From a virus (taxonomy: Duplodnaviria > Caudoviricetes), in the IMG/VR virus record IMGVR_UViG_3300028048_000091, positions 32,001 through 96,000 of that record: 64,000 nt of DNA. One strand, 5' to 3'. The translations under genes were made by a program, and so were the position numbers. Within the stretch, counting starts at the first letter, position 1; every line of letters starts with the position of its first letter. Of this stretch, positions 25,447 through 42,319 are shown piece by piece. Under the pieces are notes generated by a model. It was given only the letters and a program-made list of their open reading frames with translations. It was not told the origin of the DNA and made no database searches.

Positions 25447-25583
25447 TTTATTCTTCCTCCTTTTCAACTACGATATATGCTTTATAGTTATAGTTGATAT
25501 CATAATCTTTTTTTAGACCGGAAGACAAACTTGTTTCAATAGCATTTTTTAACATCTTTTGCTTTTGCCATTGAGCACCGGCC

Positions 25584-26958
25584 GTGAACTACCCCCACCT
25601 AAAGGAGGGGGCTTCCCCATTCAACGAAGCGGCTTGCATTAAGGTTTCCCTTAATGTAGAGGTCACTTCTCCAGGGGCGTAAATTCCCGCAGTTCCTGCG
25701 GTATTATATTCATTTTCTAATACAACACTATAAAAATAGTCTCTAAGGTTTAAGGCAGCATTGTAATCACGGTCAATTACGCAACCACAAGTGGGGCATA
25801 CCCATTCCCGGTCAGATAATTGCAGTAAATCGTTCTTACTACCACATTCATGACAGGTCTTACTACTCGGAAACCATTTATCCACGTACATAACACAACT
25901 ATCACGCTCTATGCACTTGTATTCAAGAAAACTACGAAACTCACCAAAACCTAAATCCATAACGGATTTACCAAGGTGCAAAGTACGAGACATATCTTGC
26001 AGGTTTATATCCTCAAGAACAATTACATCATACTTATCCACGTAGTAACGAGATAGTTTATGGCAGTAGTCTAAACGGCAATTAGCAACATGACGGCTTA
26101 ACTTGGATAAACGCTTCCTCGACTTGTAACGATTGGAAGAACCCTTAACCTTACGTGATACCATACGTTGCAGCCTTTTAAGACGTTTCTCGTTCCTCCG
26201 GTAATTCCTAATGTACTTGGCTTTCGTATCATCGGGATTACTATCGGAATCAACGGAGAAATCCGTCAAAGACATGTCAATGCCTACGATTTTCAATTCA
26301 TTGTATTTTTTATGTTTATGCGTATAGCCAACATTTTCATCAGGGATTTCTACGGCAATGGATGCGTAGTATTGCCCATCCCTTGTCTGTTCAATCGTGC
26401 AAGAAGTGATGTTACCCACTAACTCACGATGTAAGACTATATCCACAAACCCCAACTTAGGAAGTTTAAGTTTCCCATTTTCCAACCGGATAGTACCATT
26501 TTGGTTATTCGTTGTATAGGAAAGTTTGCATTTGCTTTTTTTATGCTTTTTGGGGAAGCGTACTTTTTTTCCTTTGCGTTTTCCTTTTTTGCTATCGAAA
26601 TAGTTTTTAAATGCAGTTTTCAGATGTTGCTTTGCGTTGGCGAGTGCAAGTGAGTCTACTTCGTTAAGGAATGTGTATGTATTTTTAAAGTGCGTTACTT
26701 CTTTTAGTTTTGGTTTTAGTCCGTTGTCAAGTTGTGTTTTATAGTCGTTAAGTAGTGAATTGTATATGAGACGTGCACATCCCACCGTCTTATTTATTAA
26801 GATGGCTTGCTGTGTTGTTGGCAGTAGTTTATACTTGTACGCTCGTCTCATTAGTATTGATTATTTATTATAAGTATAGTATACTTATTGTTATAAGTAA
26901 ATAGTAGTTTTGCAATTCATCCCCCACCTGAAGGAAGGGGACTTCTTGCCAAAAAATA
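25584..26958 (-). mobile_element. IS200/IS605-family (IS1341-like, tnpB-only) element 3
   Basis: Related subterminal hairpins at both ends (CCCCCACCT.AAGGA.GGGG), right end ...GGGTAGTTCAC, preceded by TTTAA; interrupts a small ORF starting at 27016. Confidence 0.85.
25589..26851 (-). CDS. tnpB: TnpB RNA-guided endonuclease
   Basis: GIDMS / LEDI / RDYNAALN, Zn finger CHEC..CPTC. Confidence 0.95.
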   Translation of the reverse strand: MRRAYKYKLLPTTQQAILINKTVGCARLIYNSLLNDYKTQLDNGLKPKLKEVTHFKNTYTFLNEVDSLALANAKQHLKTAFKNYFDSKKGKRKGKKVRFPKKHKKSKCKLSYTTNNQNGTIRLENGKLKLPKLGFVDIVLHRELVGNITSCTIEQTRDGQYYASIAVEIPDENVGYTHKHKKYNELKIVGIDMSLTDFSVDSDSNPDDTKAKYIRNYRRNEKRLKRLQRMVSRKVKGSSNRYKSRKRLSKLSRHVANCRLDYCHKLSRYYVDKYDVIVLEDINLQDMSRTLHLGKSVMDLGFGEFRSFLEYKCIERDSCVMYVDKWFPSSKTCHECGSKNDLLQLSDREWVCPTCGCVIDRDYNAALNLRDYFYSVVLENEYNTAGTAGIYAPGEVTSTLRETLMQAASLNGEAPSFRWG

Positions 26959-27020
26959 TTAAATCATCACTTACAGTCTCTTCTATGTACTTTTTAAATT
27001 TCTCTTTGTCTGTCATATGA

Positions 27021-27476: not shown

Positions 27477-28252
27477 TTATTTTTTTTGTAAACAAATAGT
27501 TTTTCTGTCTTAATATTCTGCTTATCACCCTTTTTGGTTGTTCCCATACCATCCTTTTTCTTCTTCTCCCAAATGCATGTGAAATCATCAGGCGCTGTAT
27601 ATTCTGATACAAATACTTGATGCCCTTCATTGGTCATCTTTCTTACCCATTCCCAAAACTTATCATGTGGGAAATCATCCATATATGCCTTTGTCTCAAA
27701 ATATGGGGGGTCTGCATATATAACACTATGCTCCGGGAAAGTAAATTCATCAAATGAACCACATAAAAACTCTGTTGTATCCATATGTTCGAAATTGGCC
27801 AATTGTTTCATCAAGCCATTATATGCCTCATGGCAATGATTTTCCGGTTCTCCATTCTTATTACGTTTATTGTAATTTGGTTTTGCAAAACCATTAAACC
27901 ATGATGAGCCATAACTAAGTGCATTACCAACATATCCTATAATATAGTCAGGCCAACGTCCATCGCCATTAAGATATGACTGCTTAATTGAATTGTATTG
28001 CTCTTCTGTAATTTCATACGGAATGTTGTCAGATGGATAACCAAAAATTACATTCTGTTTCAATTTATACCATAAATCAATTACATACTTGTTACTATCA
28101 ATTGCCCATTTCTTTGCATGTGGTACTTCTGATACAATAGAACACCCACCACAGCACATATCAACAAACAATGTGTTTTCATCCTTTATTGCACCCATAA
28201 GAATAGGTACAATATCATTTGCAAACTTCTTTTTACTTCCGCAATATCTCAT
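27473..28252 (-). CDS. DNA adenine methyltransferase (Dam/D12 class)
   Basis: MRYCGSK, D.CCGG.S, YADPPY, VFVSEY. Confidence 0.9.
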   Translation of the reverse strand: MRYCGSKKKFANDIVPILMGAIKDENTLFVDMCCGGCSIVSEVPHAKKWAIDSNKYVIDLWYKLKQNVIFGYPSDNIPYEITEEQYNSIKQSYLNGDGRWPDYIIGYVGNALSYGSSWFNGFAKPNYNKRNKNGEPENHCHEAYNGLMKQLANFEHMDTTEFLCGSFDEFTFPEHSVIYADPPYFETKAYMDDFPHDKFWEWVRKMTNEGHQVFVSEYTAPDDFTCIWEKKKKDGMGTTKKGDKQNIKTEKLFVYKKNK

Positions 28253-28254
28253 AA

Positions 28255-28614
28255 TTATTTCTTGTTTTTCTTTTTAACAACATTGTAAGGGTGTGACGTT
28301 ATACCTTCAAGAACAGGCACCCAATAAGATTGTATGTTTGGCTCACCAACTTTTAATAATTTAGCATTATCTGGACCATATCCGTAAGGTCGAGGACCGT
28401 ATTTTGCGTTATGCATACGTATATATTCCTCTTCATTGTTAATCGGGACGTTTATTTCCATTTCTTTCCACATCCAAATATAACAGCCAGAAACTGTTCC
28501 ATCTTCTTCTTTAAACAGCATGTCCTTACGTAAAGTGTTCCACGCAGACTTATCTGTCTTAAACTCCTTTATTCGACTGCTTCTGAGGGCATTTGACAAC
28601 TTATACCTTGGCAT
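28255..28614 (-). CDS. Hypothetical protein
   Basis: 119-aa ORF. Confidence 0.6.
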   Translation of the reverse strand: MPRYKLSNALRSSRIKEFKTDKSAWNTLRKDMLFKEEDGTVSGCYIWMWKEMEINVPINNEEEYIRMHNAKYGPRPYGYGPDNAKLLKVGEPNIQSYWVPVLEGITSHPYNVVKKKNKK

Positions 28615-31382: not shown

Positions 31383-32210
31383 ATGTTAAGAAATAGAATA
31401 TTAATATCAGGTACAAAACAATTACAATTGACTCTGGGAAGTTACTCATATAGTGCAACACCGGCATCAGGCAGTACAACAGTTTATGCATACTATGGAG
31501 GTGTACCAATCACCGATTTAACATCATCAATGGTTTCAAAATCAGGAAATATGTCAAGTGTCTCGGTTAATTCATCAGGAAAAATAACAATGAGTTATGC
31601 TAAAAATACAAGCACAACATCCACGAAAACAGGTACAATGACGCTTACATACCAAGGGCAAACTGTAACATTTACTATAACGCAAGCCAAAGATTACGTA
31701 GCAAGTACAACGTCAAGTACATCTACCGAGGAAGTAAATAGTATTTTTAATACGGGCAGTGTTTCTAGTTGGGCAGTTACAATGACCCAAACATCAAACG
31801 GATATGAAAATAATGCTTTATCCGGTGCTAAATTATATGATGTAAAAGAAACAACTACATATTATAATGTATATGCAAGTGGTAATAAAGTTAAAACAAG
31901 TTCCTCTTCAAAAACAAAAGAGACTGTTACTGCTAATATTCCGGCAGGTTTTTTTACTACTGCCTCAGCACCATCAGGTAGCTACGTTACATTAGTAAGC
32001 ACTAGTAAAACAATCAAAACAAACACTAATAAGGATTTTAGTATATCTGCTAGTGGCAGTAGTACCACTTTTTATTTGGAAATAGTTAAGACTGATGAGA
32101 CATGTACAAAAACGGTAAAACTTGGTGTGTACAATAGTTCATCTTTGCCTACCAGTTTTACTGCCAAAATCCATGCAGATAGTACTATTGGCCATTGTAA
32201 CTTTGGTTAA
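31383..32210 (+). CDS. Ser/Thr-rich beta protein with BACON/Ig-like domain, possible virion decoration/adhesin
   Basis: N.ST..KTGT.TLT.....TITQA is BACON-like; solitary + strand gene. Confidence 0.6.
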   Translation: MLRNRILISGTKQLQLTLGSYSYSATPASGSTTVYAYYGGVPITDLTSSMVSKSGNMSSVSVNSSGKITMSYAKNTSTTSTKTGTMTLTYQGQTVTFTITQAKDYVASTTSSTSTEEVNSIFNTGSVSSWAVTMTQTSNGYENNALSGAKLYDVKETTTYYNVYASGNKVKTSSSSKTKETVTANIPAGFFTTASAPSGSYVTLVSTSKTIKTNTNKDFSISASGSSTTFYLEIVKTDETCTKTVKLGVYNSSSLPTSFTAKIHADSTIGHCNFG

Positions 32211-33978: not shown

Positions 33979-35031
33979 TTAATTTAAAAAGAAGTTATAC
34001 TCCGGTTTATTATATACTTGGAAGCCCTTTAAGAAGTCTCTAATGCCAAGTATTTTCTTACCTTTTATTTGTATTGTATTAACTGAAACAACCTCATCCC
34101 CTGAAGCATATGATGGAAGTATATACAGATATTTTTTCCAATCAGTTATGATATCAGAACCGTTATAGTGTTCTTCAATCCATTTATTATCCTTATGAAC
34201 AAGGTCTGCATCATATACCTTAAAGGTTATTTCTTTCACATCATCAAAATGCCCCTCATATTCCTCATTTTCATCCTTGACCCATTTACGTATGGTAAGA
34301 TTGAATGTTGTTCCAAAATGCGGTGAGAGAGAACGTATCATATCATACAATTCCTTTGATGTATACATGTCATCACCATACATATGAAATGTTGTATTTT
34401 CCAATGTCAATTTGGGCGCATGAAAAATCTTGCTATCTAACTTCTTGGGAATTATTGGCTGTTCAACATTTGCATAGAATTTATCATTTAAGATACTTTC
34501 TATAATACCTTCAGCCATTATTGGTGTTTGTGATGCCAAACGTTTGAATAGCGTTTCATAATTATCATTTGGATTAATATTTATTCCATATTGACAAATT
34601 ATACCGCCGGTATCTATTTTATCGGCTAACTTGATAGCAGACAGCCCGGTTCTATTGAAACCATATCTTATTGCCCAACTAATAGGTGCTGCACCTCTAA
34701 GCAACGGTAATAGTGATGCATGTATATTAAATGCATATTTAACCTTTTCTGTAACACACTTAGGTAAGTACTTATATGAAATAACACAATATACATTACC
34801 ACTTATATCATCAAGCCAATTAAGAAACTCCTTATCTTCAAGGCTATTTGGAATATATACGGGGATGTTACGCTGTTTGGCAATGTCATATACACGTTCA
34901 GTACCAAATACAGGTTTGTCATTGGACGTTACAAATCCGACGACATTGTAATAGTTTGCTAAAAACTTAAATGTTTCAATTGGAAAATCCCCACTTCCGA
35001 AACATACTATTCTTAATTCGTTTAACTCCAT
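33979..35031 (-). CDS. fmt: Methionyl-tRNA formyltransferase-like
   Basis: FGS.DF, VT..DKP, FNIHASLLP.LRGAAPI.WAI, IDTG, APKL. Confidence 0.85.
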   Translation of the reverse strand: MELNELRIVCFGSGDFPIETFKFLANYYNVVGFVTSNDKPVFGTERVYDIAKQRNIPVYIPNSLEDKEFLNWLDDISGNVYCVISYKYLPKCVTEKVKYAFNIHASLLPLLRGAAPISWAIRYGFNRTGLSAIKLADKIDTGGIICQYGININPNDNYETLFKRLASQTPIMAEGIIESILNDKFYANVEQPIIPKKLDSKIFHAPKLTLENTTFHMYGDDMYTSKELYDMIRSLSPHFGTTFNLTIRKWVKDENEEYEGHFDDVKEITFKVYDADLVHKDNKWIEEHYNGSDIITDWKKYLYILPSYASGDEVVSVNTIQIKGKKILGIRDFLKGFQVYNKPEYNFFLN

Positions 35032-35069
35032 ATTTGTATTGTTTTCACTGTTATTGAAAATGGTACAAC

Positions 35070-36077
35070 TTACAGTTTTTTAAGTCCAAACTCCTCCATA
35101 AATCTACAATCTATTCCTTCGTAGATGAAATGGTAATCCTCTTCTTCCGTAGGAATGTTATTGAACAACTTATATGTCAGTGCATAATAAGGGGCAGGTA
35201 CGCAAACCAATTCAATTTCATCAGTAACGAGGTTTGTCTTGGCATAGAATGTATTTCTTGGACTGCCGCTTTCCTTGCAATATAACTGATAGCCTTCAAG
35301 TCTGAAGTATTCTGTCCTTACTTCAAGACCAAGTTTAGTCTTTACTGTATTTTCAATTTCCTTTAAACGTCCGGCCATCATACCTTTACCAATCATATCA
35401 GCAATATCGGATTCAATTACAATTTCATCATTGGCCATTGAAACAATATTCAAATCAGCACCGAAATTCTGCCAATATGTTTTCCATACCTCATTGATAA
35501 GATATTTCTCAACGGTAATTTGTCTTGCAGGATTTCGCTTACCAAATATTACTTGTCTTGAATACTTACTTTCCTTAACATATTGCAAATCAGTATACTT
35601 ACCGATGAAGTCCTCATAGGTATCAGCACCAAGTACAATATCCTTATTGACATATTTCAATGCTTGGAAGTTAGCCTTTCTTAAATCAATTGAAAGGAAT
35701 ACCTTGCCAAGATTCTCCCCATTATATACATTATTGGTTGTTACCTTTGGTCTATCAGTTACATCGAACTTATCCAATTTCATCATATTGAAGTCTTGGA
35801 ATGCAAAGTTCTCACCCATTGAAACAATAATATTGTCCCTTATCTGATAATAATCTTCAAGGAATTTATTAGCATCACCATCATAACGGCTGTCAATCAT
35901 ATCCCAAAGTGTCTTCCACTTGGTTAGTGACTTGAACTTATCCTCATACAGTTCAATGAAATAGAAGAAATACTTCTCCTTATTCATTGTGATTGGTAAC
36001 TTATAGTCACTGATAAATCGGTTAACCAACTCACGGTTATACCTTAAGTACTTTTCCTCAATCATTCTTGTATCCAT
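35070..36077 (-). CDS. Hypothetical protein with DNA-polymerase-palm-like motifs
   Basis: SIDLRKANF, K..RQVIFG, NDEIVIE. Confidence 0.5.
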   Translation of the reverse strand: MDTRMIEEKYLRYNRELVNRFISDYKLPITMNKEKYFFYFIELYEDKFKSLTKWKTLWDMIDSRYDGDANKFLEDYYQIRDNIIVSMGENFAFQDFNMMKLDKFDVTDRPKVTTNNVYNGENLGKVFLSIDLRKANFQALKYVNKDIVLGADTYEDFIGKYTDLQYVKESKYSRQVIFGKRNPARQITVEKYLINEVWKTYWQNFGADLNIVSMANDEIVIESDIADMIGKGMMAGRLKEIENTVKTKLGLEVRTEYFRLEGYQLYCKESGSPRNTFYAKTNLVTDEIELVCVPAPYYALTYKLFNNIPTEEEDYHFIYEGIDCRFMEEFGLKKL

Positions 36078-36243
36078 CTTTTCCCCACATGATTAATCTA
36101 ATAAAAATCGGCAGCATAAAACCGATAAGAAACGGCTCCCACTTAGAAGTCGGTGTGTAGCCCTCGATATCGTATATGTAATATAACAATGGTATTATAA
36201 TACCGAAATCGAAGGCTATACGTTTTACATTTTTTATTTCCAT
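36058..36243 (-). CDS. Small membrane protein
   Basis: Two hydrophobic segments; follows the promoter at 36272. Confidence 0.55.
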   Translation of the reverse strand: MEIKNVKRIAFDFGIIIPLLYYIYDIEGYTPTSKWEPFLIGFMLPIFIRLIMWGKDGYKND

Positions 36244-36271
36244 AAAATTTACATATATAAAATTTCTGTTG

Positions 36272-36326
36272 CAAATATACTAATTTTCTGCAACAGAACC
36301 AAATGTTTTTTATTAAAAAATGTTAA
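36272..36326 (-). promoter_or_regulatory. Bacteroidota-type promoter inside an inverted repeat
   Basis: TAtaTTTG 36272-36279, TTTGG 36299-36303; inverted repeat TTCTGTTGCA/TGCAACAGAA. Confidence 0.75.
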
Positions 36327-36587
36327 CTACATCCAAAAATCTATGAAGTCATTGATTTCCTTCTTCAAATCTTCCTTATCAAGATAACGCTTGGGAGACA
36401 GATATTTACCAATGGACTTTAATCCGTTAATAGCATCATCATTATCCATAAAGGCATAATTCAAGCCTTTATCAAAGGAATTAAGCCAATATAACACATT
36501 GTGATATCCAATCTCCCCCAAAATATCATCCTCAGAAGTCTCTGCAATGAGATTTTCCAATCTTTCTCTTTGGTCTGAAAACATCAT
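36327..36587 (-). CDS. Hypothetical protein
   Basis: 86-aa ORF. Confidence 0.6.
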   Translation of the reverse strand: MMFSDQRERLENLIAETSEDDILGEIGYHNVLYWLNSFDKGLNYAFMDNDDAINGLKSIGKYLSPKRYLDKEDLKKEINDFIDFWM

Positions 36588-36609
36588 AATCTATAGTTTT
36601 TAAAATTTT

Positions 36610-36819
36610 TTAATTCTGCAATCTTACACAAACATCCGGTGGCAATATCTCAAATTTCTCTTCGGCAAAACCACCATACTTTCCGAATTTAATACGAGGG
36701 CTATCAGTGTCATTTAATACAACAACACCGGTATCTGGTTCAGTAAACAAAACAATGTAGGCCTTGTCATCAACATAGTTTCGACCAAGATAAGGATAAG
36801 TAATTTTATTCTCTTCCAT
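36610..36819 (-). CDS. Hypothetical protein
   Basis: 69-aa ORF. Confidence 0.6.
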   Translation of the reverse strand: MEENKITYPYLGRNYVDDKAYIVLFTEPDTGVVVLNDTDSPRIKFGKYGGFAEEKFEILPPDVCVRLQN

Positions 36820-36835
36820 AATTTTCTAATTATTT

Positions 36836-37141
36836 TTATTTTTTATATAAATTAATGTTATCACTGAAATCTGTTGTACCAAATGTATTTGTGGTATAGG
36901 TAGTATAGTTCATGCCATTTCGTATACGTGGACGATTTGGATTATGCATCCACATATCAGGTAATGTGCAATTACAGAAACCACTTGCATATGGATTAAT
37001 CTGTGGGTTATTTAAACAGGTAGCACAGGGATAACCACTCATAGGGTCAGTGAAAATATTATTATCAAACAAACCCTCATACGGGTTTACACCAATACCC
37101 GGTTGCCCATCATCTTCAATTATGATTATTCGTTTAGCCAT
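36836..37141 (-). CDS. Hypothetical protein (C..C.NNP....SG.C.C.LP motif)
   Basis: Probable start MAKRII. Confidence 0.6.
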   Translation of the reverse strand: MAKRIIIIEDDGQPGIGVNPYEGLFDNNIFTDPMSGYPCATCLNNPQINPYASGFCNCTLPDMWMHNPNRPRIRNGMNYTTYTTNTFGTTDFSDNINLYKK

Positions 37142-37145
37142 ATTA

Positions 37146-37610
37146 TTAATTTGAAATATATTCTTTATATGTCTTTGACACAATACCACCATTAGCGGTT
37201 GGATACTTTGCCTTGACAATTGTCATAATATCCTTCATGTCCTTCATTGTCAACATATAACTATCACCTTTTGAAGTTTTAAAGGTATCAGCAGCCTCCT
37301 TGGTATATGCAATAATTTCTTCCTCTGATGCTTCCTTTGGCAAGTATGAATTGATTACTTCCAATTCTTTCTTTTCATTCTCAGCCAAGTCAGCACGGCC
37401 ACCTTTCTCGTATTGTTCGATTGAATCCTTACGCTGTGCAGCCATCTTCATCAATACCTTAAACTGCTCATCCTCGGACAGTTCCTTTGATGCACGGTTA
37501 GGCTCTGTCTGCTTCTTTAAAAACTCTGCCTTAATTAACTTTAAGACATTAAGCAACTCTCTGTTCTTCTGATGCATTGCATCCTTAATCAATTCGTCAA
37601 TCTGTATCAT
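37146..37610 (-). CDS. GatB/YqeY domain protein
   Basis: K.AM, QRKDSIEQY..GGR.DLA..E..E..VI..YLP, MKDM. Confidence 0.9.
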   Translation of the reverse strand: MIQIDELIKDAMHQKNRELLNVLKLIKAEFLKKQTEPNRASKELSEDEQFKVLMKMAAQRKDSIEQYEKGGRADLAENEKKELEVINSYLPKEASEEEIIAYTKEAADTFKTSKGDSYMLTMKDMKDIMTIVKAKYPTANGGIVSKTYKEYISN

Positions 37611-37614
37611 TTCT

Positions 37615-39060
37615 TTACTTCATTTTATATCCTTTAATATGTTTTAATAATGTCTCTTTATCAATTTTAGGGTTATTGAATGCTAATTTCAAGGCATAAT
37701 CAAGACATTCTTTAACTTCTCTACCAGGTTTCAACCCCTTGATAGCCATTACATCATTTCCGTCAATAGGTAATCTATATCCGGACATGTCAGTGTTTTC
37801 CTCAATCATTTCAGCAGTCCTATCATCAATTAAACGACATTGGTTATTAAAACAATACTCCGGAGCATGTGCCTTGTTATCTGCATCAATCAATGACAAA
37901 AGCATTGCATAATACTTATTGCCACACTCATATTGGAGTTTACGAAGTGACTTATCTTTCATGTGTGAACAGTCATCACCCCAATTCTTAGTTCTCATGT
38001 GATTCTTAACCAAGAACTGTACATCCTTAATGAATTCATTTGAATATTTCAAACGTCTTAGAATGGTTTCACATAAGTCAACAGATGCCAACTCATGCTG
38101 ATAGAAATGGACATTACCATTTTCATCAACAGTTTTTGTCTTAATCTTACCGATATCATGCAGTAATGCGGCCATCCGTAGAGCCAACTTGCCATTAATG
38201 GTAAAAGCACCATAATATAAACAATCATTCGTTACATTATCCAATACTTTGAGAGTATGCTCGAAAACAGTACCAAAATGATATTTGTTCTGTTTCATTC
38301 CAAATGTTTCTTCCAACTCTGGGATAACATATTTCATTGCCCCAATATCTTTAAGCAACTTCATTGCACATACAGGGTCTTTACATAAAAGCATCTTATT
38401 CAATTCATCCGCAATACGTTCCTTGGTAATGATAGACAATCTATCGACATTGAAATACATACCTTTAAGGGTCGTTTCCTCTATATACCAATCAGTTGAC
38501 TCACCATGAAATCTTGAGAAAAAACGCACACACCTCAAAATTCTCAAAGGGTCATCACAATAGACAATATCAGGTGTTGAAGTAACCCTAATACGATGTT
38601 CATTTATGTCTTTTAAGCCATTCCCGGTTATGTCAATTAACTCTTCTTTACTTATATTCCATAACAATGAGTTAATTGTTAAATCCCTACGCATTACATC
38701 TTCTTCGAGTGTACCGTATGCAGTTTCCGGATTCCTACTACTTTCATCATGATACTGTTCTTTCCTTGTCTGAACACATTCTATCTCAACATCGGGAAAA
38801 GATGCAAGTTTGAACATGGCAGTACCATATGTGGGATATGTAACAACAGAACCAAAAGTGAAATGGTTTTTCTCCATCCACTCAGCAAACTTTAACCCTC
38901 CGTTTTCTTTGGTAATCACGAGGTCAATGTCCTTCACATCGTTACCCATAACCATATCACGGACAGCACCTCCTACTGAATATACGTTATTCTCCCATTC
39001 ACTACCGGCAATGATAGTCTTTAAATGATTTAATATTTCCTTATATTTCTCTATTCTCAT
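37615..39060 (-). CDS. cca: CCA tRNA nucleotidyltransferase with HD domain
   Basis: VGGAVRD, KDIDL, RRDLTIN, DDPLRILR..RF, ERI..E, EHT, LLHDIGK. Confidence 0.9.
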   Translation of the reverse strand: MRIEKYKEILNHLKTIIAGSEWENNVYSVGGAVRDMVMGNDVKDIDLVITKENGGLKFAEWMEKNHFTFGSVVTYPTYGTAMFKLASFPDVEIECVQTRKEQYHDESSRNPETAYGTLEEDVMRRDLTINSLLWNISKEELIDITGNGLKDINEHRIRVTSTPDIVYCDDPLRILRCVRFFSRFHGESTDWYIEETTLKGMYFNVDRLSIITKERIADELNKMLLCKDPVCAMKLLKDIGAMKYVIPELEETFGMKQNKYHFGTVFEHTLKVLDNVTNDCLYYGAFTINGKLALRMAALLHDIGKIKTKTVDENGNVHFYQHELASVDLCETILRRLKYSNEFIKDVQFLVKNHMRTKNWGDDCSHMKDKSLRKLQYECGNKYYAMLLSLIDADNKAHAPEYCFNNQCRLIDDRTAEMIEENTDMSGYRLPIDGNDVMAIKGLKPGREVKECLDYALKLAFNNPKIDKETLLKHIKGYKMK

Positions 39061-39437
39061 ATAATCTTATCTTCTAATAATTCACAAATTACTTCAAAAG
39101 CCGCATCTAATGTAGTATTAGCTTCGACTGAATATATGGATGGCCACATCGTCGTTAATCTTGGATAATGAACTAATTTGTGTGTAACTAACAATCTATA
39201 TGGCGTATTATCCTCTTTAATAGTAATTTCATATGGCATTAAATCCAATAAAGCAGAAAGACTCCACGCAGGAATCATATCTTTTAAAGAGTATGGATAT
39301 GGCACATCTTTTGGAACACAATACCATCGCTCATCATGCCATCTATACAGCATATCAGCCGTAGTAACATCAACCCCTAACTCTATTAGTTTCTTGGACT
39401 GTTCAATATCTGTACAATTTTTACTGGTATTCTTCAT
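39057..39437 (-). CDS. Hypothetical phage protein (T.IEQSKKL/PAWSLSALL)
   Basis: Paralog of 16069-16470. Confidence 0.7.
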   Translation of the reverse strand: MKNTSKNCTDIEQSKKLIELGVDVTTADMLYRWHDERWYCVPKDVPYPYSLKDMIPAWSLSALLDLMPYEITIKEDNTPYRLLVTHKLVHYPRLTTMWPSIYSVEANTTLDAAFEVICELLEDKII

Positions 39438-39951
39438 CTTGCCTAATTCCGTATTTATGAAAATATCTTAATGGCCTCCACTTGTGACCTTTTACGTAAA
39501 ATCCCCATTTATGCCTTGGTCTTCCCTCAAACATCAATGTCCATGCGCCGCCTTTTGGTATACTTAGATAGTGTCTGTCTTCTGCCTTAGAAAACCAGAT
39601 TGACTTATTCATATGAAAGAAGTTATGCCATGAATTGAATATTCCTTCAACATAACATCTTTTTTCATTTGGTCTTACCCCATAAGAATTTTCTCCCCAA
39701 TCTGGATTTTCATTCTCATTTTCTGGTTTAACGTTCCAATATCTACCCTTTAAGACAATACTTAATAAATCAGCACTATGGTCATGAAAGAACCTGTTAT
39801 CATCTGATTTAATCCAATGATGTATTCTTATAGAATATCCAAAAAACAAAAATGTCCACCTTATCAAGTATGGATTATCCTCATAGCCTAACTTTTCAGC
39901 CCATCGAATTTGAAATCTCTTGAATTTGGCGACATTACTACTACCGTACAT
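39421..39951 (-). CDS. Cupin-like hypothetical protein
   Basis: FHDH, H...WTL...WGF; probable ATG at 39951. Confidence 0.6.
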   Translation of the reverse strand: MYGSSNVAKFKRFQIRWAEKLGYEDNPYLIRWTFLFFGYSIRIHHWIKSDDNRFFHDHSADLLSIVLKGRYWNVKPENENENPDWGENSYGVRPNEKRCYVEGIFNSWHNFFHMNKSIWFSKAEDRHYLSIPKGGAWTLMFEGRPRHKWGFYVKGHKWRPLRYFHKYGIRQDEEYQ

Positions 39952-39965
39952 ATGCTTGCATTTTT

Positions 39966-40169
39966 TAGTCAAGAGGGAAGGAATCGAACCCCCACTACCT
40001 ACCTCACATTCGGAACTACTTCAATAATACCTTGTCTAGAATATATTAATGTTTTGTTCTACCCTGAGAGTTCAGTGCTTTCACAGCCTCAATCATGTTT
40101 CATCGGAAATTAACCATCGTCATGGATTTCCAAATCGATTGCGTTCTACCACTTTGAACTATCCTCTCG
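39966..40169 (-). ncRNA. tRNA-like RNA (204 nt) with expanded anticodon/variable regions
   Basis: Acceptor CGAGAGG/CCTCTTG-A, D-arm GTTC-AAAGTGGTA-GAAC, T-arm GGGGG-TTCGATT-CCTTC, about 130 extra nt in the middle, own promoter at 40180. Confidence 0.75.
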
Positions 40170-40179
40170 TTTTCGTTTG

Positions 40180-40234
40180 CAAATGTACTACAAATATTTT
40201 AAATTACCAAATATTTTTAGTAAAAAATTGTTAA
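40180..40234 (-). promoter_or_regulatory. Promoter of the tRNA-like RNA
   Basis: TAcaTTTG 40180-40187, TTTGG 40207-40211. Confidence 0.75.
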
Positions 40235-40259
40235 TAATTCTTTTAAAACTTGTATTTAA

Positions 40260-40304
40260 CATTTTTTGCAAGAAGTCCCCTTCCTTCAGGTGGGGGTAGT
40301 TCAC
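40260..40304 (+). mobile_element. 45-bp minimal derivative of IS200/IS605 element 3 (left end fused to right end)
   Basis: TTTAA|CATTTTTTGCAAGAAGTCCCCTTCCTTCAGGTGGGGG (as left end 26921-26958) joined to TAGTTCAC (as right end 25584). Confidence 0.8.
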
Positions 40305-40322
40305 GTGAAGCCTCACAGTATG

Positions 40323-41585
40323 TTAAAACTTACACAAAGTTGAACTTCGTGATTTATTAACTTCTTGCTTCACAGAGCCACTACTTTTTAGCGAATCATT
40401 TCTGATTGGGTCATCCATAGTTGGGTTCTCCACAAGCTTAGATTCGGGTGAACTGCACCCTATTATTCTTAATCCCTCATCCAATATATTTAATGCTGCA
40501 TTGTAGTCTCTACTAATTACTTCTCCGCAATGAGGGCATATCCATTCTCTGTCATTCAATGTCAATTCCTTATTGACATAACCGCAATTATGACACGTCT
40601 TTGAACTTGGGTAAAATCTGTCAACAAATACTATCCTTCTGTTGCACCAAGAAGCCTTGTACTCAAGCATACGTCTGAACTCTCCAAAGTTCATTTCCAA
40701 AATGCTTTCTGCAAGGTTATGATTCTTAGACATACCTTTCACATTTAAGTCCTCCATACATATGACTTGGTTTTCGTCAATGAGTGAATTACTTACGCTG
40801 TGAAGATAGTATTCTTTTCTATCGTTTATTTTCTTATACACCTTAGCAAGTTTAATCCTTGCTTTATTTCTGTTATTACTTCCTTTCTGTTTTCTTGAAA
40901 GTTGCTTCTGAAGTTTCTTTATCTTCTTTGTTTCTGATTTTTTGAAATGAAGATTATCGAACACTTCTCCTTCAGATGTAATAACGAAATCCTTAACGCC
41001 AAGGTCTATTCCTACTACTGAATTTGTTTCTTTGACTTGATGCATCAAGTCTCCGTCAACAAGAATTGAAAGGTAATACTCTCCACAAGGCAAACGTTTT
41101 AATGTTACTTGTCTTATACAATTCTTATGTTTTTCAAGATACTCAGCATATTTCTTGTTACATCTGAACTTAACATTTCTTATATTAGCAAGAGAAATCT
41201 TGTAGTCTGTATAGACGTTACGCTTGGAGATTGCTCCAAGTTCAAATCTACAAGATTGTTTATTATCGTGCTTTGACTTAAACTTAGGAAATCCACTATG
41301 CTGTTCGAAGAAATTCTTATATGCTGTCAGCATATCTTTCACTGCTTGTTTCAAGACTTTAGTGTTTTGCTCTCTAAGCCATATGAAATTGTCGTCTTTC
41401 AGTAATTCGTGATGAACAAACTGGCCTAACGTAGATAAGTTTTCAGTTATTCCATTATTCTTATATGATTCAATCTTTCTGTTAAGACATTGATTATACA
41501 CAACACGATAGCAGCCAAGCAATTTATTGTACTGAGTTGCTTGTTCTTTGTTCGGATATAATCGTATCTTAACTGCTCTTAACAT
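40323..41585 (-). CDS. tnpB: TnpB RNA-guided endonuclease
   Basis: Close paralog of 5955-7214 with intact RuvC D/E/D. Confidence 0.95.
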   Translation of the reverse strand: MLRAVKIRLYPNKEQATQYNKLLGCYRVVYNQCLNRKIESYKNNGITENLSTLGQFVHHELLKDDNFIWLREQNTKVLKQAVKDMLTAYKNFFEQHSGFPKFKSKHDNKQSCRFELGAISKRNVYTDYKISLANIRNVKFRCNKKYAEYLEKHKNCIRQVTLKRLPCGEYYLSILVDGDLMHQVKETNSVVGIDLGVKDFVITSEGEVFDNLHFKKSETKKIKKLQKQLSRKQKGSNNRNKARIKLAKVYKKINDRKEYYLHSVSNSLIDENQVICMEDLNVKGMSKNHNLAESILEMNFGEFRRMLEYKASWCNRRIVFVDRFYPSSKTCHNCGYVNKELTLNDREWICPHCGEVISRDYNAALNILDEGLRIIGCSSPESKLVENPTMDDPIRNDSLKSSGSVKQEVNKSRSSTLCKF

Positions 41586-42022
41586 TACTTATTGTATATT
41601 ATCTTCATTATTTTTCCGCTATTACAATTTTTTTGGCCAACGACTTTCCAATGGCAGAATTCTGGAGACGTATCATGGTAATATCCATCATTTTCATCAA
41701 AATATTCCCAATATGTTCCTTGAACATCTGTTAAAGTTCTATATTTTTCGTTTTTAATACCTTCCAAAACTATGTCACCTTTCTGAACATTTTTCCAATC
41801 AATAGTGTCTGATACTATTTTTCTTCCATCATAGTAGCCGACTTCTACAATAATAGCTGAATCGCCACCTATTATCCTATTGATGTCAGACTCACGATAG
41901 CGTCTGTGACCGCCAGACGTTAAAATTGGTTTAAGTTTATTTTCCTTGTCCCAAATTCTTAATGTCTTAGGCGTAACATCAAGTATTTCTGCTGTCTTTG
42001 ATATGTTGTATAGTTTATCCAT
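41585..42022 (-). CDS. IS607 TnpA HTH fused to an unrelated domain
   Basis: First about 52 aa nearly identical to TnpA 7612-8229; no YARVSS motif. Confidence 0.8.
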   Translation of the reverse strand: MDKLYNISKTAEILDVTPKTLRIWDKENKLKPILTSGGHRRYRESDINRIIGGDSAIIVEVGYYDGRKIVSDTIDWKNVQKGDIVLEGIKNEKYRTLTDVQGTYWEYFDENDGYYHDTSPEFCHWKVVGQKNCNSGKIMKIIYNK

Positions 42023-42025
42023 TAA

Positions 42026-42187
42026 TTAAGTTAATACTTCTTTTATTGCATTCTCGCTTTTGTCAACCAACTCTTGAAATTCTTCAAGTGTGATTGTTTC
42101 ATCAACATCGAACATCAATGGAAATGTTTCACCATTATCAGTCTCGAATGTCTTGTTTTCAAAATCAATATTTACTACTTTCATCAT
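42026..42187 (-). CDS. Conserved 53-aa ORF at the IS607 left end
   Basis: MMKVVNIDFENKTFETDNGETFPLMFDVDETITLEEFQELVDKSENAIKEVLT. Confidence 0.75.
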   Translation of the reverse strand: MMKVVNIDFENKTFETDNGETFPLMFDVDETITLEEFQELVDKSENAIKEVLT

Positions 42188-42319
42188 ATATAAATATCTA
42201 TTAATTTCAAAAAGTTATTATTTTTGTAATAAAATGTTAAAAAATGTTTAATTATTTATTTAACTGTTAAGTACACCACTAAAGTGGCGTGCTTCCTAAT
42301 GCCTTTTCTTCTGCCTTAT

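Follow-up and report, generated by a model that had tools for sequence, protein, structure and literature searches.

A gene for an oversized, tRNA-shaped RNA lies on the minus strand of the 64,000-nucleotide (nt) stretch of phage DNA analysed here (positions 32,001 to 96,000 of IMG/VR virus record IMGVR_UViG_3300028048_000091; hereafter the window). The RNA is 201 nt long, keeps the acceptor stem and the D-arm/T-arm elbow of a tRNA, and carries ~130 additional nt between its D and T arms. It belongs to a widespread huge-phage family that travels with one small gene for a cupin-fold protein, and its inserts are under selection along with the rest of the RNA. The analysis shows the gene and its promoter, a conserved structure and the link to the cupin gene. 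In our judgement, there is about an even chance that the RNA is a tRNA mimic that is stable and unspliced, does not decode and acts together with the cupin. Non-decoding tRNA-shaped RNAs are known in few cases (viral tRNA-like structures, Y RNA modules and the T4 stable RNAs), and no explanation has been available since 2019 for the oversized, 'enigmatic' tRNAs that huge gut phages encode. One such RNA is now placed in a large, structurally selected family that has lost decoding but retains the acceptor end, the elbow and the bases of the anticodon side, and that occurs in phages from the rumen, the human gut, seawater and Caulobacter. An annotation oddity becomes a testable two-gene module that is present in cultured phages.

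A tRNA-shaped RNA with conserved, covarying inserts

The preliminary description of this locus, made from the letters of the DNA, had proposed an RNA of tRNA shape that has its own promoter, an intact elbow and a middle that is both expanded and structured, and our reading of the sequence, the promoter count and the covariation described below all agree with that proposal. The RNA had been given a length of 204 nt; it is present but ends at 39969, and the surplus consists of three trailer bases (C, T and A) that had been counted in. A covariance model built from homologues hits exactly 39969..40169 with a score of 189 bits (E 1.6e-42). The acceptor stem (CGAGAGG/CCUCUUG, with C1:G72) is followed by A73 and C74, the CCA end is not encoded, and the linker from the acceptor stem to the D stem is 3 nt (ATA) rather than 2. 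The extra nucleotides form two inserts, one of 42 nt on the anticodon side and one of ~95 nt in the variable region (Table 1). On the anticodon side, the CAATC/GATTG pair encloses TTGGAAAT/ATTTCCGA and CCAT-GACG-ATGG. An internal loop past the anticodon stem has GA on its 5' side and, on its 3' side, UGAAACAU, which contains A34-A35-C36-A37-U38; it leads into helix P2 (8 bp) and then P3 (4 bp), capped by a GACG loop that is near-invariant family-wide. In the variable region, hairpin P5 lies at 40048-40025, and its loop includes the palindrome UCUAGA. The distant pairing, the nested stems and the ~95-nt variable region had all been pointed out before, and their helices prove to be kept by compensatory changes.

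Standard annotation pipelines overlook such RNA genes completely. At this position ARAGORN found no gene in its default mode, Rfam gave zero matches at gathering scores, and relaxing the threshold to E 10 aligned no more than 11 nt of the T loop, to the transfer-messenger RNA (tmRNA) model. The Rfam tRNA model RF00005 scored 13.2 bits against a cut-off of 29. The RNA has the acceptor stem, a D arm with G18 and G19 and a T arm with UUCRA that characterize tRNAs, but it has neither a 7-nt anticodon loop with U33 and a purine at 37 nor the ~73–93 nt length of a canonical cloverleaf. Because it lacks a 7-nt anticodon loop and falls below the tRNA model's cut-off, we take it to be non-decoding. The earlier exclusion of a tmRNA is borne out: ARAGORN found none in tmRNA mode, and pair 3:70 is A:U here, not G3:U70. 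Likewise, the locus is not a group I intron host, with no Rfam intron match and inserts of only 42 and ~95 nt.

Helices were placed by hand from single-sequence folds and then tested with controls. In a structure-blind MAFFT alignment of 30 homologues (41 pairs), 88.4% of cells were paired compared to 44–52% with the partners slid, both sides changed in 27/41 pairs, and 0/500 shuffles matched the observed values. In an alignment of 78 sequences (40 pairs) that is fitted to the covariance model, and hence biased towards it, 92.3% of cells were paired compared to 41–51% with the partners slid, 38 of the 40 pairs had changed on both sides, and again no shuffle of 500 reached this level. The collection of homologues that the preliminary description had proposed as a check thus yielded extensive covariation. 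In these 78 sequences, the acceptor stem had 98% of its cells paired and covariation in 7/7 pairs, the D arm had 99% of its cells paired and both-side changes in 3/4 pairs, and both sides changed in every pair of the anticodon stem (5/5), P2 (7/7) and P3 (4/4). All five pairs of P5 had also changed on both sides. The base of the long arm (15 pairs) has moderate support, with 70% of cells paired compared to 21–54% when slid and both-side changes in 7/15 pairs, and it is not uniform. The P4 stem occurs as GCU/AGC, GCC/GGC or GUU/AAC around a GNRA-like GAGAA or GUGAA loop, and one natural variant (L076) is without P4. RNAalifold, run on the raw MAFFT alignment, recovered the structure only in part.

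Folding of single sequences gave the same picture. The long variable-region arms shared a common shape, and the anticodon-side insert of each homologue, folded alone, gave an 8-bp P2, a 3–5-nt bulge and a 4-bp P3 with its GACG cap; P2 sequences are unrelated between homologues, yet the fold is shared, and swapping 3' halves between sequences weakened the mean fold from -12.0 to -8.2 kcal/mol. A strain variant is represented in another sample by a DNA contig of 452 nt. It differs at 10 positions, with one in the 201-nt RNA compared to five in the 55 nt directly downstream; the one within the RNA (40105 G>A, RNA C65U) retains pair G39:U65. The homologues are therefore not normal tRNAs carrying a random insertion, the outcome named at the outset as contrary to the proposal: their inserts are conserved and covary. 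A kink-turn was considered for the internal loop and rejected, as the strand order of its GA bases mismatches the kink-turn consensus.

The ends and the anticodon side of the RNA are conserved as well. C1:G72 is found in 76/78 sequences. Of 55 unbiased expanded candidates, 47 combine C1:G72 with A73 and 51 have C74; RNAs of the gut clade have no encoded CCA. In at least 45 of 65 members, A-C-A-(U), itself preceded by A, U, C or G, directly adjoins the 3' strand of the anticodon stem on its 5' side, and the window RNA has AACAU at 40099-40095. Judged by these bases, the conserved remnant N34-A35-C36-A37-U38 reads as a valine-type anticodon side. A35, C36 and A73 are sequence determinants of Escherichia coli tRNA-Val, and the window RNA has all three. 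The preliminary description had instead suggested a tRNA-Pro(UGG) origin. Its argument from TTTGGAA does not hold, since this segment forms the 5' side of P2, is not conserved and gives way in homologues to unrelated sequences that pair all the same; its argument from C1:G72 and A73 stands as a resemblance to bacterial tRNA-Pro, and the same combination is present in a related phage's own tRNA-Pro.

A promoter had been noted about 10 nt upstream, and it is real: a Bacteroidota-type promoter ends 9 nt before C1. The motif TTTG-N17-21-TAnnTTTGC occurs nine times in the window compared to 0.83 expected, every copy on the minus strand, spread over window positions 5785-57467; this set fits a Bacteroidota host and one-directional transcription of that part of the genome. 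An identical promoter type precedes protein genes elsewhere in the genome. Among homologues, 18 of 50 have an exact TAnnTTTG box 10–29 nt upstream, compared to 3 matches in controls taken 200 nt further upstream. RNA libraries of two other studies contain short contigs that are restricted to the RNA gene and unspliced in sequence, which is weak evidence for a transcript. We found no joins across the inserts among contigs of two RNA runs and one DNA run, although contigs cannot prove their absence.

Linkage of the RNA to a cupin gene

Directly downstream of the RNA lies a gene for a 176-residue basic protein that we call the cupin. The preliminary description had placed the RNA upstream of cca, yqeY and fmt; that link is confined to this genome, and the conserved neighbour is the cupin gene. 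At least 537 homologues of the cupin were found at E <= 0.001, of which the 120 listed are 68–86% identical, and some sit on contigs of up to 717 kb. To survey the linkage, we fetched DNA around cupin homologues from 3 contigs (by exact protein look-up), 46 IMG/VR loci and 80 metagenome loci. Expanded tRNA-like RNAs adjoin the cupin gene in this DNA, and 54 distinct RNAs were extracted. They fall into clades of 190–211 nt (resembling the window RNA), 134–143 nt and ~186 nt, with scattered others down to 74–79 nt that have loops of 9–12 nt, and the smallest relatives that an ARAGORN-style reading puts beside the cupin gene have anticodon loops of mostly 8–12 nt.

A strict scan that required 7/7 acceptor pairs, C1:G72, A73 and T-loop and D motifs at most 650 nt upstream of the cupin found an RNA in 49 of 95 distinct loci compared to 0 of 95 on the reverse strand, and in 36 of the 49 the RNA 3' end was at most 60 nt from the cupin start codon. 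Using blastn with known members, we found the RNA at 83/129 loci, and further ones were added by eye. A covariance model built from 30 sequences and run against 100 sources (97 cupin loci, two neighbouring genes and the window) gave 79 matches in 75 of them, all on the cupin strand. The window RNA itself has a phrog_4786 cupin gene within ~1 kb on the same strand, C1:G72, A73 and C74, and the N34-A35-C36-A37 remnant. Its genomic position is conserved across dozens of phages.

The arrangement of the pair varies. In the human-gut clade (L034, L036) and at loci L040 and L052, the cupin gene comes first and the RNA lies downstream of it; in L023, L028 and L121, the two are separated by 190–210 nt, with a small open reading frame (ORF) inside the L023 gap. 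The RNA of Paraglaciecola Antarctic GD virus 1 is 127 nt long and has its CCA encoded; it follows RNA ligase and phosphatase genes and is paired with a cupin gene. In Caulobacter phage CcrColossus and in Brevundimonas phage Bajun, two RNAs of 250–275 nt with C1:G72, A73 and an encoded CCA stand in tandem, followed by a methyltransferase gene and then the cupin gene; these tandem RNAs lie in ~0.7 kb of unannotated DNA in both phages (L154, CcrColossus 241.4-242.0 kb; L157, Bajun 53.6-54.2 kb). Cultured carriers of the pair are CcrColossus, CcrPW, Bajun and Paraglaciecola GD virus 1. The record of L034 (G003) is a complete human-gut huge phage of 379,916 bp with direct terminal repeats; it has five matches to the RNA model, one ~0.8 kb downstream of the cupin gene and four clustered at 1.2-9.7 kb, beside the genome end.

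Two related phage fragments (G001 and G002), reached via synteny of the CCA-adding enzyme gene, have neither a cupin nor an RNA homologue: blastn was empty, and the model gave one borderline match in each. Searches of IMG/VR with exact D-arm, T-arm and anticodon-side strings returned nothing, or unrelated coding sequence in six small contigs, and blastn of the locus against GenBank phages gave one chance match only. In the literature, we found no paper describing this RNA-cupin pair.

The partner is predicted to be a metal-enzyme-like protein of cupin fold. As a sequence family, it has no Pfam or NCBIfam match, and a PDB profile search was empty; it does match phrog_4786, labelled 'cysteine dioxygenase' (E 4e-23), and a feature search returned a dioxygenase as a lead. 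The AlphaFold model (predicted local distance difference test score, pLDDT, 90) was compared to known structures using Foldseek and VIA-align, which returned cupins only (Z up to 11.5, template-modelling score 0.4–0.5), including thiol dioxygenases, HppE and canavalin. Residues H44, H56, D57, H58 and H127 are invariant in 37 sequences, and H56-x-H58 with H127 agrees with the two metal motifs of cupins. The protein is Trp-rich (10 Trp), with an isoelectric point of 9.5 here and a range of 9.3–9.9 in the family.

Possible functions of the RNA-cupin pair

Read as a mimic working with the cupin, the RNA retains what maturation and charging enzymes touch in a tRNA: the acceptor end (C1:G72-A73-C74), the D/T elbow, the anticodon stem and, of the anticodon loop, the 3' half. 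The GACG-capped helix has taken the place of the 5' half of that loop, and the variable loop has grown into a hairpin and a long arm with a UCUAGA loop. With a helix in place of the 5' half-loop, the RNA cannot read a codon, and 'tRNA mimic', the label offered in the preliminary description, is the best available. What we infer about processing, stability, charging and contact with the cupin can be put as a pathway: the RNA and the cupin mRNA would be co-transcribed from the RNA's own promoter, RNase P and RNase Z would excise the RNA, the phage CCA-adding enzyme would complete its 3' end, and the RNA would then act with the cupin as a substrate, carrier or scaffold. Charging by the host valyl-tRNA synthetase would be an attractive but rather unlikely element of this pathway. 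If the RNA were charged, or were a substrate of the cupin, the pair would represent a new kind of phage RNA-enzyme system.

A more specific form of this idea makes the RNA a dedicated carrier. A host synthetase would charge it (with Val in this clade and Phe in the Caulobacter-phage clade), the extra arms would keep it off the ribosome, and the thiol-dioxygenase-like cupin, in some phages together with the methyltransferase, would modify the attached amino acid or an RNA base. We consider this version unlikely; were it true, it would amount to a phage-encoded tRNA-dependent chemical pathway with a private tRNA.

Several observations weigh against a mimic that works with the cupin. In the phages of alphaproteobacteria (the Caulobacter/Brevundimonas clade), the remnant is U-GAA-GA, which is Phe-like rather than Val-like, so that any charging would differ between clades. 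Similarity of the RNA body to 33 phage tRNAs is inconsistent, with best matches to Gly, Asn, Asp, Ile and Pro; combined with the Pro-like C1:G72 and A73, this points to no single isotype of origin. One RNA-library contig extends 42 nt upstream of C1, beyond the predicted start, and may derive from DNA or read-through; in general, assembled contigs can neither reveal RNA ends nor prove the absence of spliced forms. In phages of Rhizobium, Mycobacterium and Burkholderia, no RNA adjoins the distant homologues of the cupin. Finally, the 'cysteine dioxygenase' label is accompanied by neither a Pfam match (CDO_I) in 37 members nor a PDB sequence match.

Other explanations account for some of the evidence. 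The RNA could be a tRNA-shaped 5' element of the cupin mRNA that is cut by RNase P and RNase Z or acts as a sensor, and so sets the 5' end, stability or translation of that mRNA, for which the t-elements of plant mitochondria offer a parallel. The start codon 17 nt past A73, the short spacing (<=60 nt) at 36/49 strict-scan loci, the promoter that precedes the RNA and not the cupin gene, and the lack of a terminator-like hairpin between the two all speak for such a leader. However, the RNA is 3' of the cupin gene in the human-gut clade, L040 and L052, the methyltransferase gene intervenes in CcrColossus and Bajun, and gaps of 190–210 nt separate the pair in L023 (with its small ORF), L028 and L121; this variation in order argues against a pure 5'-leader role. 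A plain processing signal also needs neither ~130 nt of covarying extra structure nor conserved anticodon-side bases, and we regard the leader as quite unlikely. To the same low degree we would credit a decoy or sponge that acts independently of the cupin on a host tRNA-directed defence (an anticodon nuclease, a tRNA-modifying toxin or the like) or on a host tRNA-binding enzyme. A tRNA-like upper half with anticodon-side bases could compete for tRNA-binding proteins, the neighbourhood in this genome is concerned with tRNA maintenance (CCA-adding enzyme, YqeY and an Fmt-like protein), and RNA ligase and phosphatase genes adjoin the RNA in Paraglaciecola GD virus 1. A decoy nonetheless leaves unexplained both the lineage-specific arms with conserved GACG and UCUAGA loops and the tight linkage, of ancient date, to a single cupin gene; none of the genes next to the RNA was identified as serving defence or counter-defence, and the fixed partnership with the cupin argues against a free-standing decoy.

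A tRNA gene interrupted by two introns, in the anticodon loop and the variable loop, whose removal would yield a decoding Val- or Phe-like tRNA in the way proposed for the 'enigmatic introns' of Lak megaphages, is in our view very unlikely. Such genes have a precedent in the intron-like tRNA genes of huge gut phages, self-splicing introns would covary too, and one excision could recreate a Phe loop from the U-GAA-GA on the 3' side of the CcrColossus and Bajun RNAs. ARAGORN in intron mode does report a tRNA-Phe(GAA) with a 113-nt intron here, but its model has a mismatched anticodon stem and uses the long-arm GAAGUAGUU as the anticodon. Excising the covariation-supported helices leaves a 10-nt loop (GA plus UGAAACAU) without U33. 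The inserts are two in number and lie apart, Rfam gave no intron or ribozyme family even at E 10, the covariation-supported structure has no bulge-helix-bulge (3-4-3) motif at the junctions, and the RNA-library contigs are, as weak evidence, unspliced. A decaying tRNA pseudogene with junk insertions is barely credible. Standard tRNA finders reject the RNA and the 106.7-kb record has no ordinary tRNA gene, as might be expected of decay, but compensatory changes in 38/40 pairs across 78 sequences, conservation at the strain level, a conserved promoter and a genomic position conserved in dozens of phages all contradict it; the covariation in particular rules this explanation out.

Related RNAs and genomic surroundings

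The closest parallels are the oversized tRNA-like genes in other huge phages of gut Bacteroidota. In the Lak megaphages, 'enigmatic' tRNA introns were reported whose inserts are strongly conserved from cohort to cohort, match nothing in Rfam and have no known mechanism (Devoto et al., 2019; PMC6784885). The exons in Lak Table S6 form a canonical tRNA with G1:C72 and a 7-nt loop, interrupted once, after position 37, by an insert with a mini T-arm (PMC6784885). By contrast, the window RNA has two inserts, a canonical loop that cannot be restored, a fixed C1:G72 and a tie to a cupin. The Lak paper does not mention a cupin (PMC6784885), and tblastn with the cupin against the phage collection found no homologue in records named Lak.

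Among tRNA-shaped RNAs outside this setting, the valine-accepting tRNA-like structures (TLS) of plant viruses such as turnip yellow mosaic virus (TYMV) are non-decoding viral RNAs with Val-type anticodon bases and an A discriminator, and they receive CCA. They are the 3' ends of RNA genomes and have a pseudoknotted acceptor, whereas the window RNA is a separate gene of a DNA phage with a normal 7-bp acceptor stem, and its charging is hypothetical. YrlA and other bacterial Y RNAs also place a tRNA-like D/T elbow in a non-coding RNA that works with one dedicated protein. The topology here is nevertheless the opposite, with the RNA ends forming the acceptor stem; the partner is a cupin, there is no Rfam match at E 10, and no Ro/Rsr gene was found among the RNA neighbours examined, which are part of a 27%-complete record. 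Group I introns in tRNA-Leu UAA and tRNA-fMet genes resemble the present case in being anticodon-loop inserts in bacterial-type tRNA genes, but inserts of 42 and ~95 nt are too short for a group I core and their excision restores no tRNA. Stable RNA species 1 and 2 of phage T4 (rnaC and rnaD), likened here by description only, are larger than tRNAs, have tRNA-like ends and are of unknown function; to our knowledge they do not pair with a cupin gene.

Another oversized gene of tRNA-like form, 126 nt long, lies on the minus strand at record positions 28173-28298, 3.7 kb before the window start. It has G1:C72, A73 and C74; its D and T arms are normal, ~50 nt are extra, and a canonical anticodon loop is missing. 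It is preceded by the same promoter type and stands 26 nt before an uncharacterised 153-residue ORF; the 201-nt RNA model gives no match to it. Related huge phages (L011, L012 and L013) have arrays of 19–34 tRNAs. One of these, in L012 (G001:C1:56477-56594), is a putative 118-nt tRNA with an internal T-arm-like hairpin that resembles Lak-type inserts, and ARAGORN in intron mode reports candidate genes with inserts of 510–746 nt, one of them as 'tRNA-Stop(tta)'.

Table 1. Coordinates of the RNA gene, its parts and neighbouring features in the window
Feature	Position	Strand	Details
Whole expanded tRNA-like RNA, 201 nt, C1 to discriminator A73	39969..40169	minus	read from sequence
Acceptor stem 5' strand CGAGAGG, pairs with 39970-39976	40163..40169	minus	7 bp
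D arm GUUC/GAAC, G18 G19 in loop	40143..40159	minus	4 bp
Expanded anticodon arm	40090..40141	minus	5-bp stem CAAUC/GAUUG, internal loop, P2, P3
P4 small hairpin GCU-GUGAA-AGC, opening the expanded variable region	40077..40087	minus	covarying stem
Long irregular arm of variable region	39994..40076	minus	ends in P5, holds conserved GAAGUAGUU
T arm GGGGG-UUCGAUU-CCUUC and acceptor 3' strand CCUCUUG	39970..39993	minus	A73 at 39969, C74 at 39968
Bacteroidota-type promoter TTTG, 20-nt spacer, TACATTTGC	40179..40211	minus	ends 9 nt before C1
Partner gene, 176-residue basic cupin-fold protein, start codon 17 nt after A73	39424..39951	minus	fold and PHROG match
CCA-adding enzyme gene, 481 residues, 0.9 kb 3' of RNA	37615..39060	minus	Pfam PolyA_pol, PolyA_pol_RNAbd, HD, tRNA_NucTran2_2
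IS607-like element, 5' of RNA promoter	40315-42276	minus	TnpA remnant and TnpB
MerR-type helix-turn-helix TnpA remnant, truncated, 145 residues	42022..41585	minus	IS607-like element
TnpB, intact, 420 residues	41585..40323	minus	IS607-like element

The source is a huge cattle-rumen phage. Its 106.7-kb IMG/VR record has a CheckV completeness of only 27%, so that the phage must be huge, and public runs with the window stretch are mostly bovine and goat gut metagenomes. No ordinary tRNA genes were found in the 106.7-kb record. The order 3' of the RNA is the cupin gene, a 126-residue ORF and the genes for the CCA-adding enzyme, YqeY and an Fmt-like protein. The last three make up a translation-related gene run at window 33979-39060 on the minus strand (CCA-adding enzyme, 481 residues; YqeY-like protein, 154 residues; Fmt-like protein, 350 residues). 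The CCA-adding enzyme matches PHROG 'tRNA nucleotidyltransferase' with E 9e-65, and the Fmt-like protein has both the N- and C-terminal formyltransferase domains.

On the 5' side, an IS607-like element precedes the RNA promoter. A link between the RNA and this element or its TnpB was considered and rejected: a second IS607-like copy at window 5947-8487, 79–85% identical in DNA and with a longer tnpA region, ceases to be similar at 40315, and the close relative L022 carries the RNA and promoter without the element, which is therefore incidental. A third tnpB lies at window 25739-26851, and its TnpB is 33% identical. Just beyond the right end of the IS607-like element, at window 40254-40296, is a 43-nt G+C-rich hairpin with a ccccttccttcaggtggggg core. 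It is repeated with 91–95% identity at 26921-26964 and 25583-25615, flanking the third tnpB in opposite orientation, and may be a transposon end, a piece of omega-RNA or a terminator.

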